A DNA stretch of 64,000 bases from Cyanobacteriota bacterium (GCA_033764955.1 JANRIL010000046.1:24486-88485); one strand, 5' to 3'. Numbered from the stretch's first letter, positions 1-12,915 are shown. Numbers and translations: made by a program. Notes: a model not told the origin generated them from the letters alone.

Positions 1-48
1 CAAAATCTGGCGACGGCTGAACCCTGCTGCCAATAAACGTCTGGACAT
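1..48 (-). CDS. N-terminus of a probable Tat-exported ABC substrate-binding (BMP-type) protein, truncated by the window edge
   Basis: ATG at 48 reads MSRRLLAAGFSRRQIL (twin-arginine motif). GAGGA RBS upstream; lies downstream of an ABC permease. Confidence 0.45.
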   Translation of the reverse strand, partial: MSRRLLAAGFSRRQIL

Positions 49-121
49 GACATGTTCCTCAATACGGGACAATCAACGCAACATTCTGGACTAAAGACCG
101 GAGCGAGCCAGCATGAGGTCA

Positions 122-1069
122 TCAGCCCGTGCTGCCAAAGACCCCTTTCAACCCCTGGGGCATCCCCCCCCGTTGGGCCGTGGCCGAACTGACAACCAAC
201 ACCGCCAGCGACAAGAGGTAGGGCAGTGTGGCCAAGAGATAGGACGACACCTCCACCCCCATCGATTGCAGCCGCAGGTACAACGCCTCGGATCCACCAA
301 ACAGTAGGGCTGCCGGACAGGCCCAAAAGGGATTCCAGCGGGCCACGATCACCAAGCCCACCGCCACCAGACCTCGTCCAGCGGTCATGTTTTCCGCCCA
401 GGTGAGGGTATAGTCCACCGACAGCGCTGCCCCACCCAGGCCTGAGAGCAAACCCCCGATGCCGATACCCTGCATCTGCACCCACCAGGGTCGGATCCCC
501 ATGCTGCGGGAAGCCGGAATCGATTCCCCTACCGCCCGCCAGATCAATCCCGTGTGGGTGCCATAGACCAAGACCCCGATGACGGGCACCAGCAGCAGCG
601 ACAGCAGGATAGTCGGGGTCAACTCCCCCACCACCGCGCCCAATCCACTGATCTTTTGCCCCACGTAGGCTCGCCCCCAGTAGGCACTGAGGCCGGATCC
701 CAGCACCCACACCGCGACACCGCTGGCGATGGCATTGGTGCGTAAACCCACGCAGAGCAGCATGTGCAAGCTCGACAGGGCCAGCCCGGCCAGGGATCCC
801 GCCAGCAAGCCCAGCCAGGGGTTTTGGCTGATCACCGTGACGGCAAAACCAACGCAGGCCCCCAGCAGCATTTGCCCTTCCACCCCCAAATTGATCACCC
901 CCGTCAGTTGGGTCAGGGTTTCCCCCACCACCACAAACAGAATGGGAGAGGCACTACGCAGCGTGGCCCACAACCAACCGGAGGTCATCTCTGGGGGAGC
1001 ACTGACCAGTAGGGCGACCGCTACCACCAGAACGACCCCCAGGGAGCGCCACCGCCTCCGAAACGGCAT
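122..1069 (-). CDS. ABC transporter permease (nucleoside/purine type)
   Basis: GVINLGVEGQMLLGA, RAVGE and GRGLVAVGLV motifs; highly hydrophobic. Start placed at ATG 1069; the ORF track extends to 1300. Confidence 0.85.
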   Translation of the reverse strand: MPFRRRWRSLGVVLVVAVALLVSAPPEMTSGWLWATLRSASPILFVVVGETLTQLTGVINLGVEGQMLLGACVGFAVTVISQNPWLGLLAGSLAGLALSSLHMLLCVGLRTNAIASGVAVWVLGSGLSAYWGRAYVGQKISGLGAVVGELTPTILLSLLLVPVIGVLVYGTHTGLIWRAVGESIPASRSMGIRPWWVQMQGIGIGGLLSGLGGAALSVDYTLTWAENMTAGRGLVAVGLVIVARWNPFWACPAALLFGGSEALYLRLQSMGVEVSSYLLATLPYLLSLAVLVVSSATAQRGGMPQGLKGVFGSTG

Positions 1070-1164
1070 TAACGATGGGATCACGAAGGCCGCTCCTACG
1101 CCCAGGGAATGTCCCAGCATCTTAGGGATCCCGCCGGAAAACATCCGTAGCTGGCGATACACAA

Positions 1165-1182
1165 TATAGGATATATCCTGTA
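1165..1182. promoter_or_regulatory. Palindromic operator candidate for the GntR regulator
   Basis: Perfect palindrome AGGATATATCCT (1168-1179) between the divergent permease and GntR genes. Confidence 0.5.
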
Positions 1183-1243
1183 GGCGATTTGCATTTCCCC
1201 ATCCACAGCGGATGATGGAAGCATCGCTTCGCCGTATCCTCCC

Positions 1244-1918
1244 ATGACTGCTGTCAAACCTGTGCTTGCTTCCTTGGCCGGGATCCCGCGCACCACCCAA
1301 GCCACCGTCACCGAGCAGTTGCGGCGAGCTATTTTATCGGGGGCATTGCCAGGGGGATCCCGACTGACCCAGGCGGAACTGGCCAACGCCTTTCAGGTCA
1401 GCATTACCCCAGTGCGCGAGGCCCTACGCGAACTGAGCACCCAAGGGTTGATCGAGCTGGATGCCTTTCGCTGTGCGGTTGTCCATACACCGACATTGAA
1501 AGAACTGGAAGAAATTTATGAACTGCGGCAGGTGTTGATTCCCTACACCGTGGAGCATGGGATCGCCAAAATCTCACCGGAGGAACTCCGGCAAGCCGAG
1601 ACGCTGCTGACCACCATGGAGCGGGAAACGGATCAATCGCTGTGGGTGGATCTGAATCGCCAATTTCACAATCTCCTGGAGCAGGCCGTGGACAACTCCC
1701 ATGTGCAAGCCACCCTGCGCCGCCTCTCCGATTTTTCGGCAATTTACGTCAATTTGTCCTTTGCCAAGCAACCCCTGCAAAAGGAAGACTCGGAGCGGGA
1801 ACACCGTCAAATCCTGCAAGCCTATCAGGATCGGGATCCCGTGTTGGCCACCCAATTAACCTTGGCTCACGTCAGCGCTACATTGGTGGCCGCGAGACAG
1901 GTATTTAGGCAGGAGTAA
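1244..1918 (+). CDS. GntR family (FadR/FCD) transcriptional regulator
   Basis: wHTH motif LRRAILSG..PG.RL...ELA..F.VS.TPVREAL; FCD C-terminus with NRQFH and EH..I motifs. Confidence 0.92.
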   Translation: MTAVKPVLASLAGIPRTTQATVTEQLRRAILSGALPGGSRLTQAELANAFQVSITPVREALRELSTQGLIELDAFRCAVVHTPTLKELEEIYELRQVLIPYTVEHGIAKISPEELRQAETLLTTMERETDQSLWVDLNRQFHNLLEQAVDNSHVQATLRRLSDFSAIYVNLSFAKQPLQKEDSEREHRQILQAYQDRDPVLATQLTLAHVSATLVAARQVFRQE

Positions 1919-1991
1919 GGTGTCTCGTCAATTCAATGCCCTCATGGCCAGCAGTGATAGCTCACCCTTTTAAGCAGATTGTTAGGCTTGC

Positions 1992-3101
1992 ATGGAGAAA
2001 TTTGGTGCTATGGAAATAGAAGGTTTAAAAGCGCTGAACGTTTTCGTTGATTCATCAATATTTATCGGCAAAAACTACAGATATGAGCACCCTTCGTTTG
2101 TTGCTCTCAAGGATGCTGTATCGGCAGGGCGAGCCAATTTGCTGATTACGGATATAACCATAGAGGAAGTGAAGGCGCATATAGATAACGATGTTAGCGA
2201 GTCTTCGCAAGCTCTTAAGAAAGTTCATGGTGGGGTAAAGATTCTTAGAAACATTGCTAAGCTAAGTGATTCAGCCATATTCAATGATATTGATCGCGCA
2301 TCCGTCGGTGAGGAGCTTTATAAGCAGTTTGAACAGTTTTTGACAGATGCCAGGACAGTCATCGTTTCAGTATCGGAGGCCAACACGCGGTCTGTCTTTG
2401 ATTGCTACTTCAAGCGTGCTGCGCCATTTGGCGAAGGAAAAAAGAAGAGCGATTTTCCTGATGCATTTGCATTATCGGCATTGAACGAATGGGCGGAATC
2501 AGAGCAGGAGGATGTATTCGTTGTAAGCCAAGATTCAGACATGAATGGAATCGAAGTCGATTTTCCGTGTTTGTCAGCACTTAGCTCACTGGAAGAGTTT
2601 CTGGGCAAAGTTACTTCATACTTTGAGGAACTCGCTCCGCTAGCTCAGCAGTTGTTGGAAGACAATTTTGGCCAAATTGCGGATATTCTTGAAGAAAGAT
2701 TTCAGTGGCTTGGCTTCGTATTGGCGGATCAAGATGGTGATGTGAATGAAACTAGAGTCACTGAGGTCGGAGAGATTTCTGCCTACCTGATTTCGCTAAC
2801 CCCCGGCTCAAATGGCGAGCCAGCAGAAGCGCGATTTGAGTTGACTACAACCATCGCATATGAAGCGGACGTGTCATATGACAACCTAGAAACGGCGAGT
2901 TATGATAGCGAGGATAAGGTGTTTATCCCTTGGGAGACTGTCGAGCAAACAGTTGAAAGCTCTGAAATAGTTCAGGCTAACCTAAGATTTACGTTTAATA
3001 TGACCGAACCTCGCAATCAAGAAATTAAAGAACTGGATTTGCACACGCCAACGGACGTTTCGGTTTCTACGGAAGAAAACGATGGCTGGCCTTACAAGTA
3101 A
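1992..3101 (+). CDS. PIN-domain protein (DUF4935-like) with acidic C-terminus; cassette 1
   Basis: N-terminal VFVDSSIF, PF...KK..FPDAF and VSQDSD PIN acidic motifs. Confidence 0.7.
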   Translation: MEKFGAMEIEGLKALNVFVDSSIFIGKNYRYEHPSFVALKDAVSAGRANLLITDITIEEVKAHIDNDVSESSQALKKVHGGVKILRNIAKLSDSAIFNDIDRASVGEELYKQFEQFLTDARTVIVSVSEANTRSVFDCYFKRAAPFGEGKKKSDFPDAFALSALNEWAESEQEDVFVVSQDSDMNGIEVDFPCLSALSSLEEFLGKVTSYFEELAPLAQQLLEDNFGQIADILEERFQWLGFVLADQDGDVNETRVTEVGEISAYLISLTPGSNGEPAEARFELTTTIAYEADVSYDNLETASYDSEDKVFIPWETVEQTVESSEIVQANLRFTFNMTEPRNQEIKELDLHTPTDVSVSTEENDGWPYK

Positions 3102-3104
3102 TTG

Positions 3105-3176
3105 GCTTAACACGGCACTGCACCTGACCGCTTTTCCACTACGCTCCAAAGCGGCAGGTGAGTTTAGTCGTTGGGC
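3105..3176 (+). other. attC site 1
   Basis: GCTTAAC...GTTGGGC. Inner arms ACT(G)CACCTG(A)CCGCTTT / AAAGCGGCAGGTGAGT with two unpaired extrahelical bases; 72 bp. Confidence 0.9.
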
Positions 3177-3197
3177 TGCTTCGGGAATTGAAGAGTT

Positions 3198-4574
3198 ATG
3201 AGCTTAAAGAAAATAGAGCTAAAGGGGTTGCGAGGATTCGCAACAGTCCAATATCTAGAATTTGCTATTCCTAATGGGGATCCCGGAAGTGGAATTACTA
3301 CCTTAGTAGGACCTAATAATGGAGGGAAATCCACTGTAATTGAAGCAATCCGTGCATTATCGCTAAGGGACCCACCTAGCTTTACTGTAGGCAAACGAAA
3401 CCAGAAAGCGGGAGATCGAGTTAAAATAACCGTCTTCAATGAGTTAGCGCAAACCAAAGAACTGTGCACTATTGATGCGGGTGGTAGCGAAACTCACTGG
3501 GTTGTTAACAATGATCCCCTTCCCCCTGGAAGTGTATTCGTTTTGCCATCAAGACGCTACTTTAATCCCCTCTTTGGTAAAGCTTCCTCCGAACGGCAGT
3601 CCTACATTATTTCGTACGGTCTACCACAAACACGAGGCTCTGTAATTGACCACTTCGCTTCTAGGTTGTTTCAAGTTCAAAAGAATCGAACTGCGTTCGA
3701 TTCTGTCTTAGGTAAAGTGTTAAGCCCCGTACCTAATTGGACAATTGACCAATCAGATGGAGGTCAGTATTTTCTCAAGTTCGATTTTGGGGGTTTCTAT
3801 CATAACAGTGACGGACTTGGAGAAGGTCTTGTTAGCTTATTCTTTATAATTGACGCTTTATATGATTCCAAGCCCAATGACATAATCGTCATTGATGAGC
3901 CTGAGCTTTCTTTACATCCGTCTTTTCAAAGGAAACTCGCCTCCTTGCTTGTTGATTATGCTTCAAACAGGCAGATTATTATTGCTACTCATTCACCCTA
4001 TTTTGTTGATTTTCATGCAATAACTAATGGGGCAAAAATTGCCCGTATATATTCCGATGATTTCAATTCCACTATAAGAATGCTCAGTGAAGATTCTGTT
4101 AGTAGGATCAAAGGCTTTCTAAATAACTCATTTAATCCACACGTTCTTGGGCTTGATGCCCGCGAAGTGTTCTTTCTTGAAGAAAGAATAATTCTTGTGG
4201 AAGGTCAAGAAGATGTGGTTTTCTACAAGGATATTTCTTCTCAGTTGGATAAACAGCTTAATGGTAATTTCTTTGGCTGGGGTGTTGGAGGAGCGCATAA
4301 CATGGAAATAATAGCTGCCTTATTACAAGATTTAGGGTTTAAGAAGGTCGTCGGGATTCTAGATGAAGATAAAAAAGAGTTGATACCAGAATTAAAAGGG
4401 AAGTTCCCTGATTACAATTTCTTCAACATTCCTGCAAAAGATGTTCGTACTAAGCCTGCAATTGCTGCGAAAGACTCTGTCATAGGTTTGATTGATAAGT
4501 CGGGGGTGCTTAAACTTGAGTATAAAGATGAGGTTAATGGACTGTTCGATCAAATTAACGCTAAACTTGCATAA
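3198..4574 (+). CDS. ABC-ATPase + TOPRIM (OLD-family-like) ATP-dependent nuclease; cassette 2
   Basis: Walker A GPNNGGKST, Walker B IVIDEPELSLHP, H-loop ATHS, TOPRIM LVEGQED and GILDED. Confidence 0.8.
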   Translation: MSLKKIELKGLRGFATVQYLEFAIPNGDPGSGITTLVGPNNGGKSTVIEAIRALSLRDPPSFTVGKRNQKAGDRVKITVFNELAQTKELCTIDAGGSETHWVVNNDPLPPGSVFVLPSRRYFNPLFGKASSERQSYIISYGLPQTRGSVIDHFASRLFQVQKNRTAFDSVLGKVLSPVPNWTIDQSDGGQYFLKFDFGGFYHNSDGLGEGLVSLFFIIDALYDSKPNDIIVIDEPELSLHPSFQRKLASLLVDYASNRQIIIATHSPYFVDFHAITNGAKIARIYSDDFNSTIRMLSEDSVSRIKGFLNNSFNPHVLGLDAREVFFLEERIILVEGQEDVVFYKDISSQLDKQLNGNFFGWGVGGAHNMEIIAALLQDLGFKKVVGILDEDKKELIPELKGKFPDYNFFNIPAKDVRTKPAIAAKDSVIGLIDKSGVLKLEYKDEVNGLFDQINAKLA

Positions 4575-4579
4575 GCACA

Positions 4580-4666
4580 GCCCAACAACCCTGGTGACGC
4601 GGACTCGCAAGATTGATCTACTATAGCGGCACGTGGCTTTGGAGCTGCTGACCAAGACCGTTAGCC
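4580..4666 (+). other. attC site 2
   Basis: GCCCAAC (exact complement of GTTGGGC at the cassette start)...GTTAGCC; 87 bp with imperfect inner arms. Confidence 0.8.
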
Positions 4667-4678
4667 CAGAAGAGACGC

Positions 4679-5458
4679 ATGATTGAATCGTTGCCGACTT
4701 CGTGGCGGGACTTGCAAGAGCGAGTTGCCCGAATTCTCAACGAGTGTGGCATCGATACTTCCGTCGAGAAGCAAGTCACCCTGGCGCGAGGTAGAGCCAA
4801 AATAGATGTCTGGGCTTATGATGCTTCATCTGTGCCTCCGCAGACCTACATAATCGAGTGCAAGCGATGGTTCGAACCCGTGCCTCAAACGGTTGTCCAC
4901 GCATTTCGCAGCGTTGTCGGAGACTGCGGCGCTAATTGGGGTGCTATCGTGTCGTGCAACGGTTTCCAAAGCGGTGCTTACGAGGCGGCCCAATACTCCA
5001 ACGTACGGCTTCTCACTTGGTATGACTTTCTTGCTCTGTTTGAAACGGCGTGGTTCGATCGCTATTTCTGCCGCATCGTTGCCGAAGCGTCAGAGCCCCT
5101 CATCGAGTACACCGAGACGATCAATTCTCGCATCTTCCGAAAGGCGGATCTTCTCTCAAAAGGGCAACACGAGGAGTTCAAACGTCTTCGCTCTGTCCAC
5201 TTTTCTCTCGCTGCCATCTGCATGATGATGCGGGTGCAGGCAAATGGGGCTCTGCGTCTCGTTCGTGGCGACCATGATTCCATCATGCTCGATATCCCCT
5301 TGCGCCAAGGTATGCGAGGGGCAGCCTCGGAACTACTTGGTACGTTACCCAATTCAATCCTCGATGCCGACTCGTACCGAATTCTGCTGTCTGCGATAAT
5401 CGAAGAGGTAGAGAATGCCATCGCGTCGTTTGATCATCTGTTCGGCGAAAGGGCGTAA
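4679..5458 (+). CDS. Restriction endonuclease-like protein (Mrr_cat, PD-(D/E)XK); cassette 3
   Basis: W..LQ..VA.IL...G, KIDVW...IIECK and GFQSGA motifs. Confidence 0.8.
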   Translation: MIESLPTSWRDLQERVARILNECGIDTSVEKQVTLARGRAKIDVWAYDASSVPPQTYIIECKRWFEPVPQTVVHAFRSVVGDCGANWGAIVSCNGFQSGAYEAAQYSNVRLLTWYDFLALFETAWFDRYFCRIVAEASEPLIEYTETINSRIFRKADLLSKGQHEEFKRLRSVHFSLAAICMMMRVQANGALRLVRGDHDSIMLDIPLRQGMRGAASELLGTLPNSILDADSYRILLSAIIEEVENAIASFDHLFGERA

Positions 5459-5462
5459 AAGG

Positions 5463-5551
5463 GGCTAACCAAGCGTTGGAGCAGACTCGCGATAGCGTCC
5501 TGCGGTATGGTGAGGTTGTTGGCTGTTAGCTGCTGAGCTTTTTCGTTAACC
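5463..5551 (+). other. attC site 3
   Basis: GGCTAAC (exact complement of GTTAGCC at the cassette start)...GTTAACC; 89 bp. Shares GACTCGC and AGCTGCTGA with attC 2. Confidence 0.8.
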
Positions 5552-5567
5552 CTTACGATCTAAAACA

Positions 5568-5681
5568 GTGCTCAACGCCTTACGGCATCACAGGCAAAAG
5601 CACGCATCTAGGTACAGACAGACATAACATAAATAGTGGAGCGGCCTGCTCAACCCCTAAGGGCATTGGCAGACCCAAAGA
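5568..5681 (-). CRISPR. Orphan CRISPR mini-array, type I-B-like repeat (1 full repeat, 42-nt spacer, 1 degenerate repeat)
   Basis: The minus strand at 5603-5568 reads GTGCTTTTGCCTGTGATGCCGTAAGGCGTTGAGCAC (36 nt, GCC-GTAA-GGC hairpin, TTGAGCAC handle). A degenerate copy ATGCCCTTAGGGGTTGAGCAG ends at 5646. No cas genes in the window. Confidence 0.7.
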
Positions 5682-5933
5682 TATTAGGGATAAGAAACCA
5701 GCCGTTTTCTCAAACAAACTATGCCTGACTCCCTGGGAGGGTACCAGCCAAGCGGTCCCTTGAAGGGATAGCCCCCACGCTCGTGATAGATTTTGATGAT
5801 TGAGCAACTTCATAGGGAAGATCCGCTGGCTAAAGTCCGGTTTACGTTTAGCAGGGATAGGAACTTTAGTTTGCTTTCCAGCCATCTCAATATCATCTAA
5901 ATCCCCCGATCTAAACAAATTAAGCCAATCGCT

Positions 5934-6551
5934 TTGGATACTTTCCCAAACATGCTTAAGACCGATCGCTCTTGCCTGAGCCTGCTCCGCTGTTGTCGAT
6001 GGTTAGTCTGTTGGGGACTGATTCTTGGTTTGACCGGCTTAGCATGGGAAATCAACCTGGGTCGCCCAGCCCATGCCCAGCCCCCTCCGGTTGAAGCCGC
6101 AGCAAGGCAGGTCATTAGTCGAGAAGAGGCGGAGCAACGGCTAGCGGTGATTGCTCAGGCAATGGAGTCGATTCGGTTGTGTAACCGCCCTGGCTGTCGC
6201 TTTTTGCAAATTAATAGCCAGGTTCATCCCCAGGATGCTGAGCAACCCTCCCCCATCTACACAGGCGAGATCAACGCCATCATCGATCGCCCCGCCGCTA
6301 CCCTCGACAAAGCCCATTACCAGCTTGAATTTCGGGAGGGGCGCTGGCGTCTGTTGGGTGGAGAGGAGCTATCGGATGTTTCCTCCTTCTTTTTTGACGG
6401 AGATGAATATGAAGTATTTAGTTCCTACAGTGGGCGTACCCGCATCGAAAAGCTGCAAAACGCCAGTCCAAATCTTCGCATTGGCTATGGAGCACTCTAC
6501 TTTCAAATCATGCAGGCGGGGGTGGAAAAGCTCGCTCCCGACCCCTCCTAA
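5934..6551 (+). CDS. Hypothetical exported protein
   Basis: 205-aa ORF with a hydrophobic signal-like segment ending PAHA. Confidence 0.6.
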   Translation: MDTFPNMLKTDRSCLSLLRCCRWLVCWGLILGLTGLAWEINLGRPAHAQPPPVEAAARQVISREEAEQRLAVIAQAMESIRLCNRPGCRFLQINSQVHPQDAEQPSPIYTGEINAIIDRPAATLDKAHYQLEFREGRWRLLGGEELSDVSSFFFDGDEYEVFSSYSGRTRIEKLQNASPNLRIGYGALYFQIMQAGVEKLAPDPS

Positions 6552-6592
6552 GGAATGACCAACTCACGGGCGGGATCCCCTTTCCACCCAAA

Positions 6593-7567
6593 TTAGGCAG
6601 GAATTCGCCCTCCTCCCATCAAATAAAGCAAAGCCATGCGGATCGCCACCCCATCGGTGACTTGCTGATCAATCAAGCTCACGCCAGGATCTTCCATCAA
6701 GTCAGAGGTAATTTCCACACCGCGATTCACCGGCCCCGGATGGAGCAATTTGACATCGGGATGACATCCAGCCAAGCGCTCCCGATTCAGTCCGTAGAGG
6801 TGATGATAGTCCCGCAGGCTAGGCAAGAGGTGCTGTTGCATCCGTTCTTGCTGCAACCGCAGCGCCATGACAAAACGTGCCCCTTCTAGAGCCGTTTGGA
6901 GTTGCCAGTGAATGGAGATCCCCCACTCCGCAAAAGTTGAGGGTAGGAGGGTGGGGGGACCTGCTAGGTGGAGATCAGCTCCCAGCGTTTTCAGACACCA
7001 GATGTTGGATCGGGCAACCCGCGAATGCAAAATATCGCCGACGATGGCAATTTTGACCCCCCGCAGTAGAGTGGGATCCGGTTGCTGGGGATTGAGGTGG
7101 CTGCATAAGGTAAACATATCCAACAGACCTTGGGTGGGATGTTCGTGTTGTCCATCCCCCGCATTCAACACCCCGGCGGGGGATCCCTTCCGTTCCACCT
7201 CCTGGGCCATCTGTATGGGCACGCCCGCTTGGGCATGGCGCACCACCAAAATATCGGTTCCCATCGCCAAAAAAGTGCGGGTGGTATCGAGGATGGTTTC
7301 GCCTTTGCTGAGGGAGGAGGTGCCAGGGGCAAAGTTTAAGACATCCGCCGACAGTCGTTTAGCGGCCAATTCAAAGCTGTTGCGGGTACGGGTGGAGGCT
7401 TCAAAAAATAAGTTGGCGACCACTTTGCCCTGTAGGGTAGGAACTTTGGGCAACCGCCGCGACAGGACTTCCCGAAAGCTAGCCGCCGTTTGCACCACTA
7501 TTTCATATTCGCTGGGGGTAAAGTCTGCTAACCCCAACACATGCCGCCGATGCCAAGCCACCGCCAT
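6593..7567 (-). CDS. pyrB: Aspartate carbamoyltransferase catalytic subunit
   Basis: [20 protein letters not shown] and HPGPVNRG motifs. Confidence 0.97.
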
Positions 7568-7699
7568 AAAGCCTCATTATTGATGCCACTAACCATTTTT
7601 GAGTCTGAGCTAGCAAAGTTTTAGTTAGGGGTTATTCACTTTCCGCATTTTGACATGTTCCCGCGAGGCTTCCTCCCTCTAGATAAAGGCTGAACGGAG

Positions 7700-9256
7700 T
7701 CAATCGGCTACTGGCTCACACGTCTGCACAATGGCGGCCACGAGGGCTTCTAGGGTGTAGGGATCCGCCACAATATCCACCCGCCCCCAGAGGTTTTCAC
7801 AGGTTTCGGCGGTTTTAGGGCCAATCGCGGCGATTTTGGGCTTTTTCATCCATGCCCAGGGATCCCCATCTGCTGCTGCCTGTTGCAATAACTGCCAAAA
7901 GTGGGAAACGGTCTTGGAACTGGCAAAGGTGAGGATGTCAATCTGCTCTTGCTGTAATGCCCAGATCACCGGCGGGTCGGCTTGCGTAGGACATTGGGAC
8001 TGATAAGCGGCTACTTCACAAACCTCTGCTCCTAAGGCTTGCCATGCCTGAACGAGGGTTTCTCGTCCACCTGATTCCACCCGTGGAAAGAGAATGGTTT
8101 GCTGGTGGGGGTTGGGTAAAGCGGTGACCAGAGCATCCGCTACAAATTCATGGGGGATTACGTCTGCGCGCAATCCATATTCAGCCAGGGTGGCGGCGGT
8201 TTTGGTTCCTACCACCATAATCTTTAGCCCTGCCAGGGCACGGCTATCTCGTTGATGATGGTGCAGCCGCTCAAAGAAGTAGCGGACGGCATTGGCGGAG
8301 GTGAGGCAAAGCCAGGTAAAACGAGGCAGGTGGAGAATCGCCTGATCTAAAGGACGCCAATCACTGGGGGGAACGATCTCTAGAGTGGGCATTTCCAGAA
8401 CCCGTGCCCCTTGGCTGTGGAGGAGATTTCGCAGGGGAGAACTTTGGCTGTCGGCGCGGGTGACTAAAACCGTCTTACCCCTGAGGGGCAGGGTAGGGGG
8501 TGGGGGCGGCAGATGGGGCTGGAGGGTGGGGCGAAAGTTGACTACGGATCCCACCACAATCACACTGGGGGGCTGGAGGGAAGTGGGCGGGTGGTGCAGG
8601 GATCCGATCTCCACCTGTTGTTGGGGGGATCCGGCCTGGCCAATCACCGCCACCGGACAATCAAGAGGTTTGCCTGCTTGCCGCAGTTTTTGACAGAGGG
8701 AAGGCAAGGGTTGGGATCCCATCAGGATGACCAGAGTATCCAGGCTAGCCAGTTCGGCCCACGGCAGTAGGTCGAGGTCATGGGCAGTCAAAACGGCAAA
8801 ACAACGGCTGAGGGTTTTGTGGGTGAGGGGAATGCCCGCCAAAAGGGGAGCGGTCAACGCCGATGAGAGTCCTGGCAGGATCTCAAACGCACACCCCGCC
8901 GCCTGCAACGCCGCCACTTCTTCTAGGGCACGGCCAAAGATCAAAGGATCCCCCGCTTTCAGCCGCACCACCTGCTGCCCCGCTCGATAACGTTCAATCA
9001 TCTGGGCATGGATATCCGCCTGCACCACCGGCGCGGGGATAGGGGATCCCGCTCGTTTGCCGACGCGGATCACTTGAGCCTTGGGGGGAAGGCTAGCCAC
9101 CACCGATTCCTCCACTAGCGCATCCACGAAGACCACATCCGCTTGTTGCAAGACCCGCTGCCCCTGCACCGTCAGCGCATCTACTCCTCCCAAGCCTGCC
9201 CCCATCAGATAAATTTTGGGTGGTGGGGAGGGGGAAGTTGGCACGGCATCATCCAT
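7700..9256 (-). CDS. cobA/hemD: Uroporphyrinogen-III C-methyltransferase / uroporphyrinogen-III synthase fusion
   Basis: RLKAGDPLIFGR methyltransferase motif, then a HemD domain (LVTR, TSANAV, FASSKTV, IGPKTA). Confidence 0.92.
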   Translation of the reverse strand: MDDAVPTSPSPPPKIYLMGAGLGGVDALTVQGQRVLQQADVVFVDALVEESVVASLPPKAQVIRVGKRAGSPIPAPVVQADIHAQMIERYRAGQQVVRLKAGDPLIFGRALEEVAALQAAGCAFEILPGLSSALTAPLLAGIPLTHKTLSRCFAVLTAHDLDLLPWAELASLDTLVILMGSQPLPSLCQKLRQAGKPLDCPVAVIGQAGSPQQQVEIGSLHHPPTSLQPPSVIVVGSVVNFRPTLQPHLPPPPPTLPLRGKTVLVTRADSQSSPLRNLLHSQGARVLEMPTLEIVPPSDWRPLDQAILHLPRFTWLCLTSANAVRYFFERLHHHQRDSRALAGLKIMVVGTKTAATLAEYGLRADVIPHEFVADALVTALPNPHQQTILFPRVESGGRETLVQAWQALGAEVCEVAAYQSQCPTQADPPVIWALQQEQIDILTFASSKTVSHFWQLLQQAAADGDPWAWMKKPKIAAIGPKTAETCENLWGRVDIVADPYTLEALVAAIVQTCEPVAD

Positions 9257-9434
9257 CTAGTGAACCTTAGGAAAGGGGATCCCTATCCAGTATCCAGTAA
9301 GTATCCAGCCAGTATCCAAAATTGACGGTCGAGAGTGTTGGGTGTTGAAGGAGCAGGGCATGGTTGAGAAGGAATAGCATAGAGCTAGCAGCGCTTTTGC
9401 CTCACCCCCTCTTTACCACAAGGCTACTACCACT

Positions 9435-9998
9435 ATGGCTTGCATCACCAGACCGACACTAGGGATCCCGACGGGAGCAATGGCTTTGATCCTCACTGTG
9501 GGATTGTGGGGCTGCACTCCGGCAGGATTTCGCAACCCGCGTCCCACCCTCAGCAACGATGGGCTAAATAGTATCTATCCCGATCAAGAGCCTGCCTATA
9601 GCGCGGATGGCCGCTATTTGGTGTTTTCCTCAGCCCGCAATGGTAGTCAGGCGATTTTTCTCTACGACACACAGGCGGACAAGTTGCTGGATCTGCCCAA
9701 TCTCAACTCTAATGATGTGGCCTCCTATTCCCCCGATATCAGTGCCAATGGACGCTATATCGTCTTTGTCTCCAACGCCCTCGGCAAGTCCGAGATCTAT
9801 CTCTACGACCGTGATACCACCAATGTACAAAATATCAGCAACCGCATTCCGGGTGATGTGAGAAACCCTACCATCAGTGGCGATGGGCGCTATATTGCCT
9901 TTGAAAGCAACGGGTTGGGTCAGTGGCATATTGAAATTTTTGACCGAGGTGCTAATGCAGTAGCCCCCACTCCTTCTACCCCTAGCCCACAGCCCTAG
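9435..9998 (+). CDS. TolB-like PD40-repeat lipoprotein
   Basis: Lipobox LWGC; repeated P..S.DGRYI.F.S motifs. Confidence 0.8.
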   Translation: MACITRPTLGIPTGAMALILTVGLWGCTPAGFRNPRPTLSNDGLNSIYPDQEPAYSADGRYLVFSSARNGSQAIFLYDTQADKLLDLPNLNSNDVASYSPDISANGRYIVFVSNALGKSEIYLYDRDTTNVQNISNRIPGDVRNPTISGDGRYIAFESNGLGQWHIEIFDRGANAVAPTPSTPSPQP

Positions 9999-9999
9999 G

Positions 10000-10203
10000 T
10001 TATTTTTGGTCGGCACGGGCGGCATTCACCGCAACCTTAAAGAACCAAATGGTCAAGGGAGCGGTCAGCAATAAAATTCCCGTAGTCAGAGCAACCCCAT
10101 AATCCGGGGATCCTGATGTCAACTCAAACACAGATCCCACCGCCGCAATCGCAGATAGGCAGGATCCGGCCAGAAATAGATTACTTTTTAGGTTGGTATT
10201 CAT
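10000..10203 (-). CDS. Small cyanobacterial membrane protein
   Basis: 67 aa with two TM segments; AIAAVGSVFEL.SG.P..G motif. Confidence 0.65.
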   Translation of the reverse strand: MNTNLKSNLFLAGSCLSAIAAVGSVFELTSGSPDYGVALTTGILLLTAPLTIWFFKVAVNAARADQK

Positions 10204-10269
10204 GATAGAGAGAAGATAGGGGCAAGGGGCTAAGGCTGACCATCCGCAACCCTCATAGCCCTTATAGAT

Positions 10270-10310
10270 AAAGGAAAGGGATCCCGCTTGCTCATTCGCT
10301 CAGGATCCCT
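10270..10310 (-). terminator. Putative intrinsic terminator downstream of petE
   Basis: AGGGATCC-N18-GGATCCCT stem followed by TTCCTTTAT on the minus strand. Confidence 0.4.
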
Positions 10311-10352
10311 GCTCGGCCATCGCTCGTTGATGGATGAAGCGTCAACGGGGAA

Positions 10353-10763
10353 CTAGCCACTGACAATAATTTTGCCCACCATACCCGCGCCACGATGGGG
10401 GGTGCAGAAATAGGAATATTCGCCGGCGGGTACATCCACGAAAGCGGATTCAACCGTTTGTTTGGGGGCAGTCAAGAGGCTCTTGTGGGAAAGCTTGGCG
10501 GCGAGAGCAGCATCGTCTCCAGGCACTTTGTCAAAAACAATGTTGTGGGGATAAACCTTGTTGTTGACCCACTGCACCGTATCCCCCGCTTTGATGGAAA
10601 CCGTAGCCGGCTCAAATACCAACTGGGATTTATCGGATCCCATTTTGACTTGCACAGTTTCAGCCGCTGCCGGATAAGAGACAACAGCGAATAGACCAAC
10701 TACTAACAGGAGTCCGAGCAGCAGCCCTTGCAGACGTTGGGCAACGGAAGACAGGTAGTTCAT
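10353..10763 (-). CDS. petE: Plastocyanin
   Basis: Signal peptide; PHNIVF and YFCTPHRGAGMVG copper ligands. Confidence 0.97.
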   Translation of the reverse strand: MNYLSSVAQRLQGLLLGLLLVVGLFAVVSYPAAAETVQVKMGSDKSQLVFEPATVSIKAGDTVQWVNNKVYPHNIVFDKVPGDDAALAAKLSHKSLLTAPKQTVESAFVDVPAGEYSYFCTPHRGAGMVGKIIVSG

Positions 10764-10953
10764 GGATTCCTCTCAAGATCGTAGAGACAATAATGACAAC
10801 CGAGTAATGCCCATCCAGAAGTGGCAGGTTAGAAAGTGGCCGATCAAACGGATCGGTGAAAAAATATCTGCCATCATCAGCTAGGCATCACTATAAGCTT
10901 CACAGCAGTAACATTTTCTAGATTATACCGCCAAAGGTTCCGTTCCCTGTCGA

Positions 10954-11901
10954 TTAACTAAGGGCAGCCGCCAAGATCTGATAGGTTAGTTTCGCCACAC
11001 TAAAGGCACTGCGCCGATCCGTTTCTCGCTCTCCGGTCACGGCTAGCTCCACCACATCTGCTCCCACGATCTGCCGTTGGGATCCGAGGGCACGGATTAG
11101 CTCTATGGTGTCCCACCAACTCAAACCTCCTGGTTCGGGTGTGCCGGTGGCGGGAACCACTGAGGGATCTAAGCCATCGACATCCACCGTTAAATAGACC
11201 CGCGGCCCTAACGTTGCGATCACCTGCGGGATCCACTCCTGGGCAGGCTTGCTCTGCAAACTATGGGCAAAAAAGGTGTGCAAGCGGCGCTCCCGAATGG
11301 CCTGCCGATCTTCGGCACAAATGGAGCGGATCCCTACTTGGGTGAGGCGATTATCTATGACATCCACAATCCGCGCCATTGCCGACGCATGGGAGAGAGG
11401 GGATCCCTCGTAGGCGTTCCGCAGGTCACAGTGAGCATCAATCTGCAAGACACAAAGATCGGGGTAGTGCTCCAGATGGGCTTGGACTAAGGGAGGGGTA
11501 ACAGAGTGTTCTCCCCCAATTGAGCACAAAAAGCGCCCTGGTTTGACCAGCTCTGCCGCCCGCCGATAAATCTCTTGCATAGCTGGCTCAAAGGCTGCCG
11601 TAAACTCTACCGGCGGAGCCGTCCAGTAGCGCGAGATCACGTCAGCATCTTCTTCTGTTTCTAAGGAACTGCCAGAGGCGACGGCTGGTTCACGATCCCG
11701 CACCTCGTCATAAAGCTCCACATAGGCAGAGGCTTCTAAAAGAGCCTGGGGGGCTTGGGCGGTTCCTTTGCCATAGGAGGTGGTGGCCTCATAGGGGACG
11801 GGCAAGATTATTGCCTGCGCCGTCGCCAAATCGGTTTCGGTCAGTCCTAAAAATGGGGTGGGAGATGGGGAAGACGACGACACAGCTAAGCCAAAACGCA
11901 C
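10954..11901 (-). CDS. speB: Agmatinase (ureohydrolase)
   Basis: GGEHS, DAHCD and DVDGLDPS..PATGTPEPGG motifs; start uncertain. Confidence 0.9.
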   Translation of the reverse strand: MRFGLAVSSSSPSPTPFLGLTETDLATAQAIILPVPYEATTSYGKGTAQAPQALLEASAYVELYDEVRDREPAVASGSSLETEEDADVISRYWTAPPVEFTAAFEPAMQEIYRRAAELVKPGRFLCSIGGEHSVTPPLVQAHLEHYPDLCVLQIDAHCDLRNAYEGSPLSHASAMARIVDVIDNRLTQVGIRSICAEDRQAIRERRLHTFFAHSLQSKPAQEWIPQVIATLGPRVYLTVDVDGLDPSVVPATGTPEPGGLSWWDTIELIRALGSQRQIVGADVVELAVTGERETDRRSAFSVAKLTYQILAAALS

Positions 11902-11962
11902 AACTTTTCTATCTTAACACTTCCCTCCAAAAGCCTCTACAGAGAGGGGATAGTGCCCCTGG

Positions 11963-12915
11963 AGTAATGATACTATTGCCTTAGGTTTTCTATTTCTTAT
12001 TTGCGCTATGTTTACCTGCCCAAACTGTCATTCTTCTCAGCTGGCTAAGCACGGCAAAACCCATAACAAAGAAACAACGATTTAAATGCCATGATTGTCA
12101 TAGGCAGTTTACTCCTGATTCCTCTCAGAAAGTCATTTCAGATGCAGATAGATTTAGATGCAGATGGCTCTTTAGTAAATAAACTCTTGCCAGAACGAAT
12201 TTCTATCGCCGCCATATCCCGGATAAACGACATTTCAGAATCATGACTACAAAACTATATTAATTATAAGCCTGCTTATATATCTCAAATTATGGAGGTT
12301 TATCTCAACCCTACGGCAGGCTGATGCCAAAAAAAAGGCACGTTGTTCGCATTAGCATCTTTTCCTGTAATGCGATGTTTGCGTAGCCATTATTATGACT
12401 GTTTGTGGGATCCAAAGACAACCACCAATGGCTCTGGATGGTCATAGAGAAAGAGACTCGACTTGTCCTAGCCGTTTATATCGGATCCAGAACTAGAGAC
12501 AGTGCAAAAAATTTACGGAAGAGACTGCCAAAAGCTTAGGAAAACAAGCAAGTTCTATCCTATAATTGATTTACTTAACGATGAAAACAGAAAAACTCAA
12601 CAATGTTTTTCAAGTATGAATTTCACCAGGCTTGGCTGTCTCATTCTTATCTAAATCAACCATGAATTCTGAAAAGTTTATCAAAAAGTTGTTCGTGAAA
12701 ATAAGCATGAAGCTGTTGGTAGAGAAACAGGGAAAACCTTTTTGATTGTTCGCGTAGCTTGGCGTAGCCATAACGATTAAATAACACCCTTAGACAGCGG
12801 ATCGGAAGGCTAGTCAGAAAAACTCTCTCCTCCTCCCAGAAACTGGAGAACCTTATTGGGATGATCTTCAACTTTTTGCATCACTACCATGCAACATGAC
12901 TTACATATGACTACT
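11963..12915 (+). mobile_element. Degenerate IS1-family element (frameshifted insA/insB pseudogene)
   Basis: ATG at 12008 reads MFTCPNCHSSQLAKHGK, then after a frameshift QRFKCHDCHRQF (InsA Zn ribbon). Later fragments FVGSK..QWLW and RLNNTLRQRIGRLVRKTLS. AT-rich with many stops; ends approximate. Confidence 0.8.

Follow-up and report, generated by a model that had tools for sequence, protein, structure and literature searches.

Organization of the locus

The 64,000-nucleotide stretch of DNA considered here (the window) comes from a Cyanobacteriota bacterium (GCA_033764955.1, JANRIL010000046.1:24486-88485; G000:C34:24486-88485 in our numbering of genomes and contigs), and carries between positions 1981 and 5551 three open reading frames (ORFs), each followed by a candidate attC recombination site, immediately downstream of a gntR-family regulator gene. 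An earlier reading of the sequence (the original prediction) had assigned this segment to the attC-site clusters that have no integron integrase (CALINs), and the present analysis supports that assignment: the three attC sites lie on one strand and less than 4 kb apart, no integron integrase is found within 4 kb or anywhere on the contig, no attI site is found on it, and the adjoining intI gene and attI of a complete integron are thus lacking. We consider it almost certain that the locus is a real CALIN. The source genome, a draft assembly of 48 contigs, has 11 phycobilisome-family matches and is therefore cyanobacterial, as had been predicted. The features of the array and of the gene preceding it are as follows, with attC scores from the covariance model R1 described in the next section.

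1244..1918, + strand: gntR-family regulator gene (GntR helix-turn-helix and FCD domains; Pfam FCD 5.9e-19, GntR 1.2e-14), intact, GC 0.567
1981..1987, + strand: left junction of the array, 5' core GTTAGGC; homology to the metagenome copies of cassette 1 begins exactly at 1981
1982..3170, + strand: cassette 1, ORF1 1992/2010-3101, PIN_12 protein, GC 0.45
3105-3176, + strand: attC1, 72 nt, R'' GCTTAAC, R' GTTGGGC, R1 31.9 bits (E 3.3e-6)
3171..4660, + strand: cassette 2, ORF2 3198-4574, ABC-type ATPase with a probable OLD-like TOPRIM, GC 0.413
4580-4666, + strand: attC2, 87 nt, R'' GCCCAAC, R' GTTAGCC, R1 22.2 bits (E 8.7e-4)
4661..5545, + strand: cassette 3, ORF3 4679-5458, Mrr-type restriction-endonuclease fold with a C-terminal extension of ~140 amino acids, GC 0.538
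5463-5551, + strand: attC3 (right junction of the array), 89 nt, R'' GGCTAAC, R' GTTAACC, R1 27.4 bits (E 4.5e-5)

The three + strand ORFs that had been described (1992-3101, 3198-4574 and 4679-5458) are all intact, without frameshifts or internal stops. They had also been called promoterless, a description that holds up: a promoter scan of 5 kb found 4 promoter-like sites where shuffled sequences would give 6.8, and none of them precedes a cassette ORF. The core-to-ATG distances are short. The gntR gene is co-oriented with the array and its stop codon (1918) lies 63 nt from the first core; between this stop and ORF1 (1992) there is no terminator-like or promoter-like site, and it is plausible that the cassettes would be transcribed by read-through from gntR. 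The insert 1981-5551 is low in GC (0.45, 0.413 and 0.538 in cassettes 1, 2 and 3) relative to the left flank (0.594), with the contrast among cassettes that had been described.

attC sites and core boxes

The model R1 was built from eight attC sites lying beside the genome's own intI genes on other contigs, none of them from the window. In the consensus fold of these training sites the R box is followed by an unpaired spacer and then by an L stem that carries two bulges, and compensatory changes occur in 8 of the 18 predicted pairs of the training alignment. With filters off, R1 gave six hits at E<=10 in window positions 1-12000, the top three being exactly the predicted sites, and the fourth scoring 11.4 bits; positions 12001-64000 gave no hit at E<=1. 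The claim that an attC follows each of the three ORFs was thereby upheld, all three sites scoring as hits of this home-made covariance model. With default filters attC3 and attC2 pass and attC1 does not, and attC3 is the sole hit on contig C34 in the R1 search of the whole genome. The sites, all on the + strand, start 3-5 nt past the ORF stop codons at a spacing of 1404 and 797 nt, with R' boxes starting at 3170, 4660 and 5545, and 3 of 3 have inverse core boxes, with AAC at the end of R'' and GTT at the start of R' on the strand of the ORF. An Rfam scan of positions 1500-6500 (E<=10) returned no attC family, giving a sub-threshold CRISPR repeat and two chance-level matches. A strict RYYYAAC/GTTRRRY motif-plus-folding scan recovered attC1 alone, because attC2 and attC3 both depart from that consensus, and a looser version was too noisy.

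Every modelled pair in attC1 is standard, and two single-base bulges lie on its R''-L'' arm, at top-strand G3120 and A3127 (C and T on the bottom strand), in agreement with the two extrahelical bases originally described. Its bottom-strand hairpin has a predicted energy of -14.1 kcal/mol (z -2.55; 1 of 200 shuffles as good when unconstrained), again with the T and C opposite A3127 and G3120 bulged out, and 3 of 300 inner shuffles are as good when the R box is forced. R1 also places both bulges in attC2 and attC3, but with 4 and 2 non-standard pairs respectively, and the case for these two sites is made by model score, position, strand and the core rule.

Recombination occurs at G|TT, and each cassette keeps its own TTnnnn at its 5' end. 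R'' is therefore expected to complement the 5' core of its own cassette. The match is exact in cassette 2 (GTTGGGC/GCCCAAC) and cassette 3 (GTTAGCC/GGCTAAC), and cassette 1 (GTTAGGC/GCTTAAC) has one mismatch at which a G.T pair can still form, just as the original prediction had it. A background for this rule was obtained from 71 R1 hits elsewhere in the genome (excluding the window's own hit and one partial hit), of which the 51 with AAC and GTT ends were kept and the other 20 dropped. Among random ordered pairs of these sites, 181 of 2550 (7.1%) are exactly complementary and 26.8% match within one mismatch, while exact complements make up 12 of 21 neighbouring pairs in the genome's arrays. 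From these rates we calculate a probability of ~0.004 for two exact matches and one near match by chance.

Cassette 1 as a module

The ORF1 product matches PIN_12 (Pfam, 2.5e-28; 100 bits against a cut-off of 32) over profile positions 1-172 of 172, its C-terminal half being without assignment, and it has no PADLOC or NCBIfam match. It has 115 homologues at E<=1e-5, mostly of 363 amino acids, with best identities of 93, 89 and 86%. The length of these homologues, together with the absence of the first ATG from the closest relative, makes the ATG at 2010 the probable true start codon, for a protein of 363 amino acids.

The extent of cassette 1 is marked by copies in other DNA. Of sequencing runs, three DNA runs from a single study (X1-X3, with the label bioreactor sludge metagenome) and no RNA run were listed as containing a small share of the window, and the contigs of these three match positions 1981-3176 only, with 66 differences in 1196 nt (94.5% identity) in a 2228-nt contig. 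Past both ends the letters are unrelated, and loose ends occur at 1981 and 3176 in X1 and X3. These three runs cover neither cassettes 2 and 3 nor the flanks. From the left boundary we infer a crossover between G1981 and T1982.

Fourteen metagenome loci with ORF1 relatives were examined with R1, and in three of them an attC at E<1e-3 directly follows the gene (L043, 46.7 bits; L031, 35.1; L041, 28.3), with a second attC (29.5 bits) just upstream of the gene in L041; in a further six loci the hits are weak, at 13-17 bits. The relative in L031 (90% amino acid identity) has the same GTTAGGC core behind different DNA; its attC is also the same, with an R'' (GCCTAAC) that complements the core exactly, and past R' the DNA again differs. 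This exact GCCTAAC suggests that the GCTTAAC of the window arose by a single later change. The pairing of GTTAGGC with GCCTAAC recurs in L036/37 and L038, where the DNA before the core differs, and L041 pairs GTTAGGA with TCCTAAC. Judged from these copies, cassette 1 is an independent module found in other contexts.

Relatives with 84-86% amino acid identity in L032/L034 and L033 have neither the attC nor the GTTAGGC core, and their sequence diverges immediately past the stop codon; an ORF1-type gene thus also occurs where no cassette can be recognised.

Cassettes 2 and 3 and their products

The ORF2 product matches the Pfam families AAA_21 (3.1e-26, 93.6 bits) and AAA_15 (1.9e-23, 84.1 bits), and reaches 22.7 bits for OLD-like_TOPRIM, which is 0.5 below the Pfam cut-off of 23.2. 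In PADLOC it matches AriA (3.8e-26), Old (5.8e-20) and GajA (3.9e-17). Its family comprises 2086 proteins at E<=1e-20 among 8000 scored, typically of ~455-465 amino acids, the best non-self match being 86% identical; some homologues are named in their source as 'ATP-dependent endonuclease of OLD family', and many close ones carry PF20469. The arrangement of an ABC-type ATPase followed by a probable TOPRIM in one polypeptide is shared with class 1 OLD nucleases and with the AriA-type ATPases of PARIS, from which cassette 2 differs in its length of 458 amino acids, under the 578 positions of the PADLOC Old profile, in its TOPRIM score just short of the cut-off, and in having no partner gene in the cassette.

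The ORF3 product matches Mrr_cat (Pfam, 4.2e-13; 49.9 bits against a cut-off of 21) and has 162 homologues at E<=1e-5, of ~255-261 amino acids, the best non-self match being 84% identical and several being named 'restriction system protein' in their source. Its best PADLOC match (E 0.0029) is not convincing. A search of 400 other genomes of the phylum with ORF3 as the query gave no hit (1 of 401 with its own genome counted). No NCBIfam family was above its cut-off for any of the five proteins scanned. Motifs that we take to be Walker A/B-like, TOPRIM-like and (D/E)xK-like are readable in the ORF translations.

From their family membership, the three products would be nucleic-acid-cutting proteins of kinds found in anti-phage defence, in line with integron cassettes that encode phage defence (10.1101/2024.07.02.601719; PMC12614218, as far as the available portions of these sources go). 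The locus adds three candidate single-gene nuclease defence cassettes. It shares with the cassettes of those reports a compact single-gene form and nuclease or ATPase products of defence-associated families, and differs from them in that PADLOC gives no match for the PIN_12 protein and an E of 0.0029 for the Mrr-like one.

Integrases, attI and attC sites elsewhere in the genome

A genome search with the integron integrase family TIGR02249 gave nine matches, two of them full-length and over the cut-off of 265:

C9:19-960: intact intI gene, 463.2 bits
C38:63588-64529: intact intI gene, 451.4 bits

The DNA beside both genes consists of textbook cassette arrays. A pseudogene with two stops lies on C36, and there are several fragments, intI fragments being present on four further contigs. 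On the whole 88-kb contig C34, with 26 kb upstream of the array and 58 kb downstream, there was no TIGR02249 match at E<=1e-3; the absence of intI that had been claimed is therefore correct for the entire contig, but the locus is integrase-less locally only. The two resident attI regions are alike (86% over ~92 nt, with a shared palindrome), and C34 has no similarity to either at E<=0.1.

The genome search for intI and other attC clusters that had been suggested was carried out, and was positive for both. With 150 of the 635 first-look candidates scored, R1 gives at least 73 hits at E<=1 in at least 46 same-strand clusters (4-kb threshold), and several arrays lie at contig ends. At least 32 clusters have a best hit of 35 bits or more, and at least 19 of these are separated by more than 5 kb from the nearest contig end and by over 20 kb from every intI match. 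These 19 scattered strong loci are mostly single sites, 4 of them ending in R' GTTATCG. An exact complement of the first R'' occurs within 3.5 kb upstream in 8 of the 19, where ~4 would be expected by chance, which is suggestive only of left ends at those eight. The array in the window is thus one among many attC loci dispersed through a genome whose integrases look live.

Two further observations concern these resident elements. An orphan attI-like sequence (G000:C11:37532-37564), matching the attI of both resident integrons, lies just upstream of a cluster of two attC sites (C11:33782-36610, - strand), on a contig with no intI match, which would be a CALIN with its attI retained. In the intI-adjacent array on C9 (L009, G000:C9), at 2615-2647, the R' GTTATCT of the second attC is followed 20 nt on by a second core, GTTAGGC, and it is this second core that is complementary to the R'' of the next cassette; the second core looks like the stub of a lost attC.

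Origin of the array

At the left junction of the array host DNA runs directly into G|TTAGGC, with no R1 hit upstream of it and no attI there, and the right junction is the R' box of attC3, G|TTAACC. Taken together, the two junctions point to a pre-insertion site that would read ...CAGATTG|TTAACCC..., that is, a GTT, which fits the GWT motif described for cassette insertion (10.1101/2022.09.11.507474, in its available portion). According to the same portion of that source, genomic GWT sites take up cassettes, which are expressed when a resident promoter is close by, and insertion at such 'attG' sites is the proposed origin of small CALINs and of single attC sites lacking integron integrases (SALINs). 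Among the CALIN origins listed in the accessible part of PMC4889954 are secondary-site integration by an integron elsewhere in the genome, and rearrangement; it also states that half of CALINs occur in replicons encoding IntI, and that Cyanobacteria encode integrons.

The mechanism that we propose is that each cassette would be an independent promoterless module of the form TTnnnn-ORF-attC-G, drawn from an environmental cassette pool, and that a resident IntI encoded elsewhere would recombine the folded attC with a non-canonical chromosomal G|TT (attG) site, the cassettes entering one at a time or as a multi-cassette circle and being transcribed by read-through out of gntR. Separate donors are plausible for the cassettes because their GC differs, their attC sites are heterogeneous, and cassette 1 alone is met in other contexts. 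An origin by secondary-site insertion is moderately favoured, and the combination of a genuine CALIN, environmental cassettes, in-trans insertion by IntI, read-through from gntR and nuclease functions is in our view the likely explanation of the locus as a whole.

Several points weigh against this explanation. An empty site was not found: the left flank matches 6 of 41 genomes including the window's own, in which the relatives are 65-72% identical and not syntenic, and in G014, the one close relative, gntR breaks off at about residue 73, which leaves both the manner of insertion and the sequence of the original target to inference. Positions 1400-9300, searched against the five nearest relatives, matched in housekeeping parts only, with nothing inside 1981-5551, a result that, like the low GC of the insert, speaks for foreign DNA. 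R1 is a home-made model trained on eight sites of one genome, and its scores for attC2 and attC3 (22-27 bits) fall well short of the 40-94 bits reached by the resident attC family, which fits a foreign origin yet lowers certainty. In the folding check attached to the original prediction attC1 gives a convincing hairpin and the other two sites do not, the hairpin of attC2 being no better than shuffles (z +1.77, 199 of 200 as good; 283 of 300 with the R box forced) and that of attC3 not beyond them (z -0.60, 53 of 200; 167 of 300 with the R box forced), so that attC2 and attC3 may be decaying and poorly recombinogenic. The sole relative of ORF2 found in the genome contigs searched (L030, 49% identity) has no attC by R1 (best 12.1 bits), a weak result, since the pattern search used for such contigs reaches close relatives only.

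Other histories of the locus can be set against these observations. The array might be a piece of a larger resident array, relocated by rearrangement, homologous recombination or transformation, and array breakage is made plausible by the arrays at contig ends and the intI fragments on four further contigs, rearrangement being itself a listed CALIN origin (PMC4889954, accessible part). A random break, however, would not give a left edge exactly at the G|TT crossover of cassette 1 and a right edge at an R' box; the window attC sites, at 22-32 against 40-94 bits, are unlike the resident family; domain searches found no insertion sequence (IS) or transposase domains in the flanks; and the cassettes are single-copy in the genome, all of which makes relocation unlikely. 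That the array is instead what remains of a complete integron after its intI and attI had decayed on the spot would have precedent, since decayed integrons are common and this genome has an intI pseudogene elsewhere (C36, two stops), but we consider it very unlikely given the lack of a TIGR02249 match at E<=1e-3 and of attI-like sequence on the 88-kb contig, and given the intact, co-oriented gntR immediately upstream, 63 nt from the first core.

Least probable of all, to the point of being highly improbable, is that a single co-adapted defence operon (PIN, ATPase-TOPRIM and Mrr) moved as an island and that the attC sites are ordinary intergenic palindromes. All three products are indeed of nuclease type, and ATPase-nuclease pairs are common in defence systems, as in the PADLOC hits; against this, cassette 1 occurs alone with its attC beside other genes in metagenome contigs, GC differs by up to 12.5 points between cassettes, and the intergenic elements match a model derived from intI-adjacent attC sites and obey the core rule.

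Insertion of independent cassettes at a secondary site agrees with known systems as follows. The locus has in common with the CALIN class two or more same-strand attC sites less than 4 kb apart, no intI nearby, a small array, non-resistance cassettes, and a genome with IntI, and differs in nothing essential from the class as set out in the accessible part of PMC4889954, its attC sites here being heterogeneous, unlike the resident family, and in two of three cases thermodynamically weak. With attG insertion, as presented in the available portion of 10.1101/2022.09.11.507474, it shares a bare G|TT left junction without attI or attC, a co-oriented gene upstream, and many scattered single attC loci; that work is experimental and uses IntI1 in E. 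coli and V. cholerae, whereas the present case would involve a cyanobacterium with its own integrases and is inferred from junctions.

A wider reading, possible but tentative, is that this whole genome exemplifies the natural working of the attG route in a cyanobacterium, in which two live integrases would scatter cassettes, many of them nuclease or defence genes from a cross-habitat pool, and the gntR locus would be one such insertion, behind a resident promoter and beside what looks like a decayed CRISPR remnant. If so, the integron would feed a dispersed defence repertoire instead of one array. CALINs, cyanobacterial integrons, secondary-site insertion and defence cassettes have all been described already, and general knowledge is unchanged by this locus, which serves as a well-delimited natural example of cassettes outside an integron in a cyanobacterial chromosome, the ends of cassette 1 being confirmed by independent copies. 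The whole genome is perhaps more useful: with its two intact integrases, its orphan attI and its many dispersed attC loci, it could suit the study of cassette spread within a chromosome.

Flanking genes and neighbouring sequences

Beyond gntR and the array, the neighbouring genes are:

upstream of gntR: ABC-transporter permease gene
5934-6551, downstream of the array: conserved hypothetical gene, followed by pyrB

An ORF at 5580-5918 on the - strand has no Pfam, PADLOC or NCBIfam match and is not treated as a gene.

The close relative G014 (L019, G014:C1) is 93% identical to the window over positions 1-1441, a segment that takes in the permease gene and gntR up to codon 73, after which its sequence is unrelated. 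Housekeeping genes such as pyrB are ~69% identical between G014 and the window genome, and the difference between the two values suggests a recent segment exchange, or a rearrangement breakpoint inside gntR.

A CRISPR-repeat-like sequence, scoring 32 bits with Rfam CRISPR-DR33 (gathering score 39), lies at 5568-5604 on the - strand, 17 nt past the last R' box, and a second, degenerate copy (85% over 20 nt) lies 78 nt further, at 5647-5666; the segment 5568-5666 looks like a decayed two-repeat CRISPR remnant beside the cassettes. Contig C42 begins with an exact match to the first 23 letters of the repeat, an indication of a CRISPR array at the edge of that contig.

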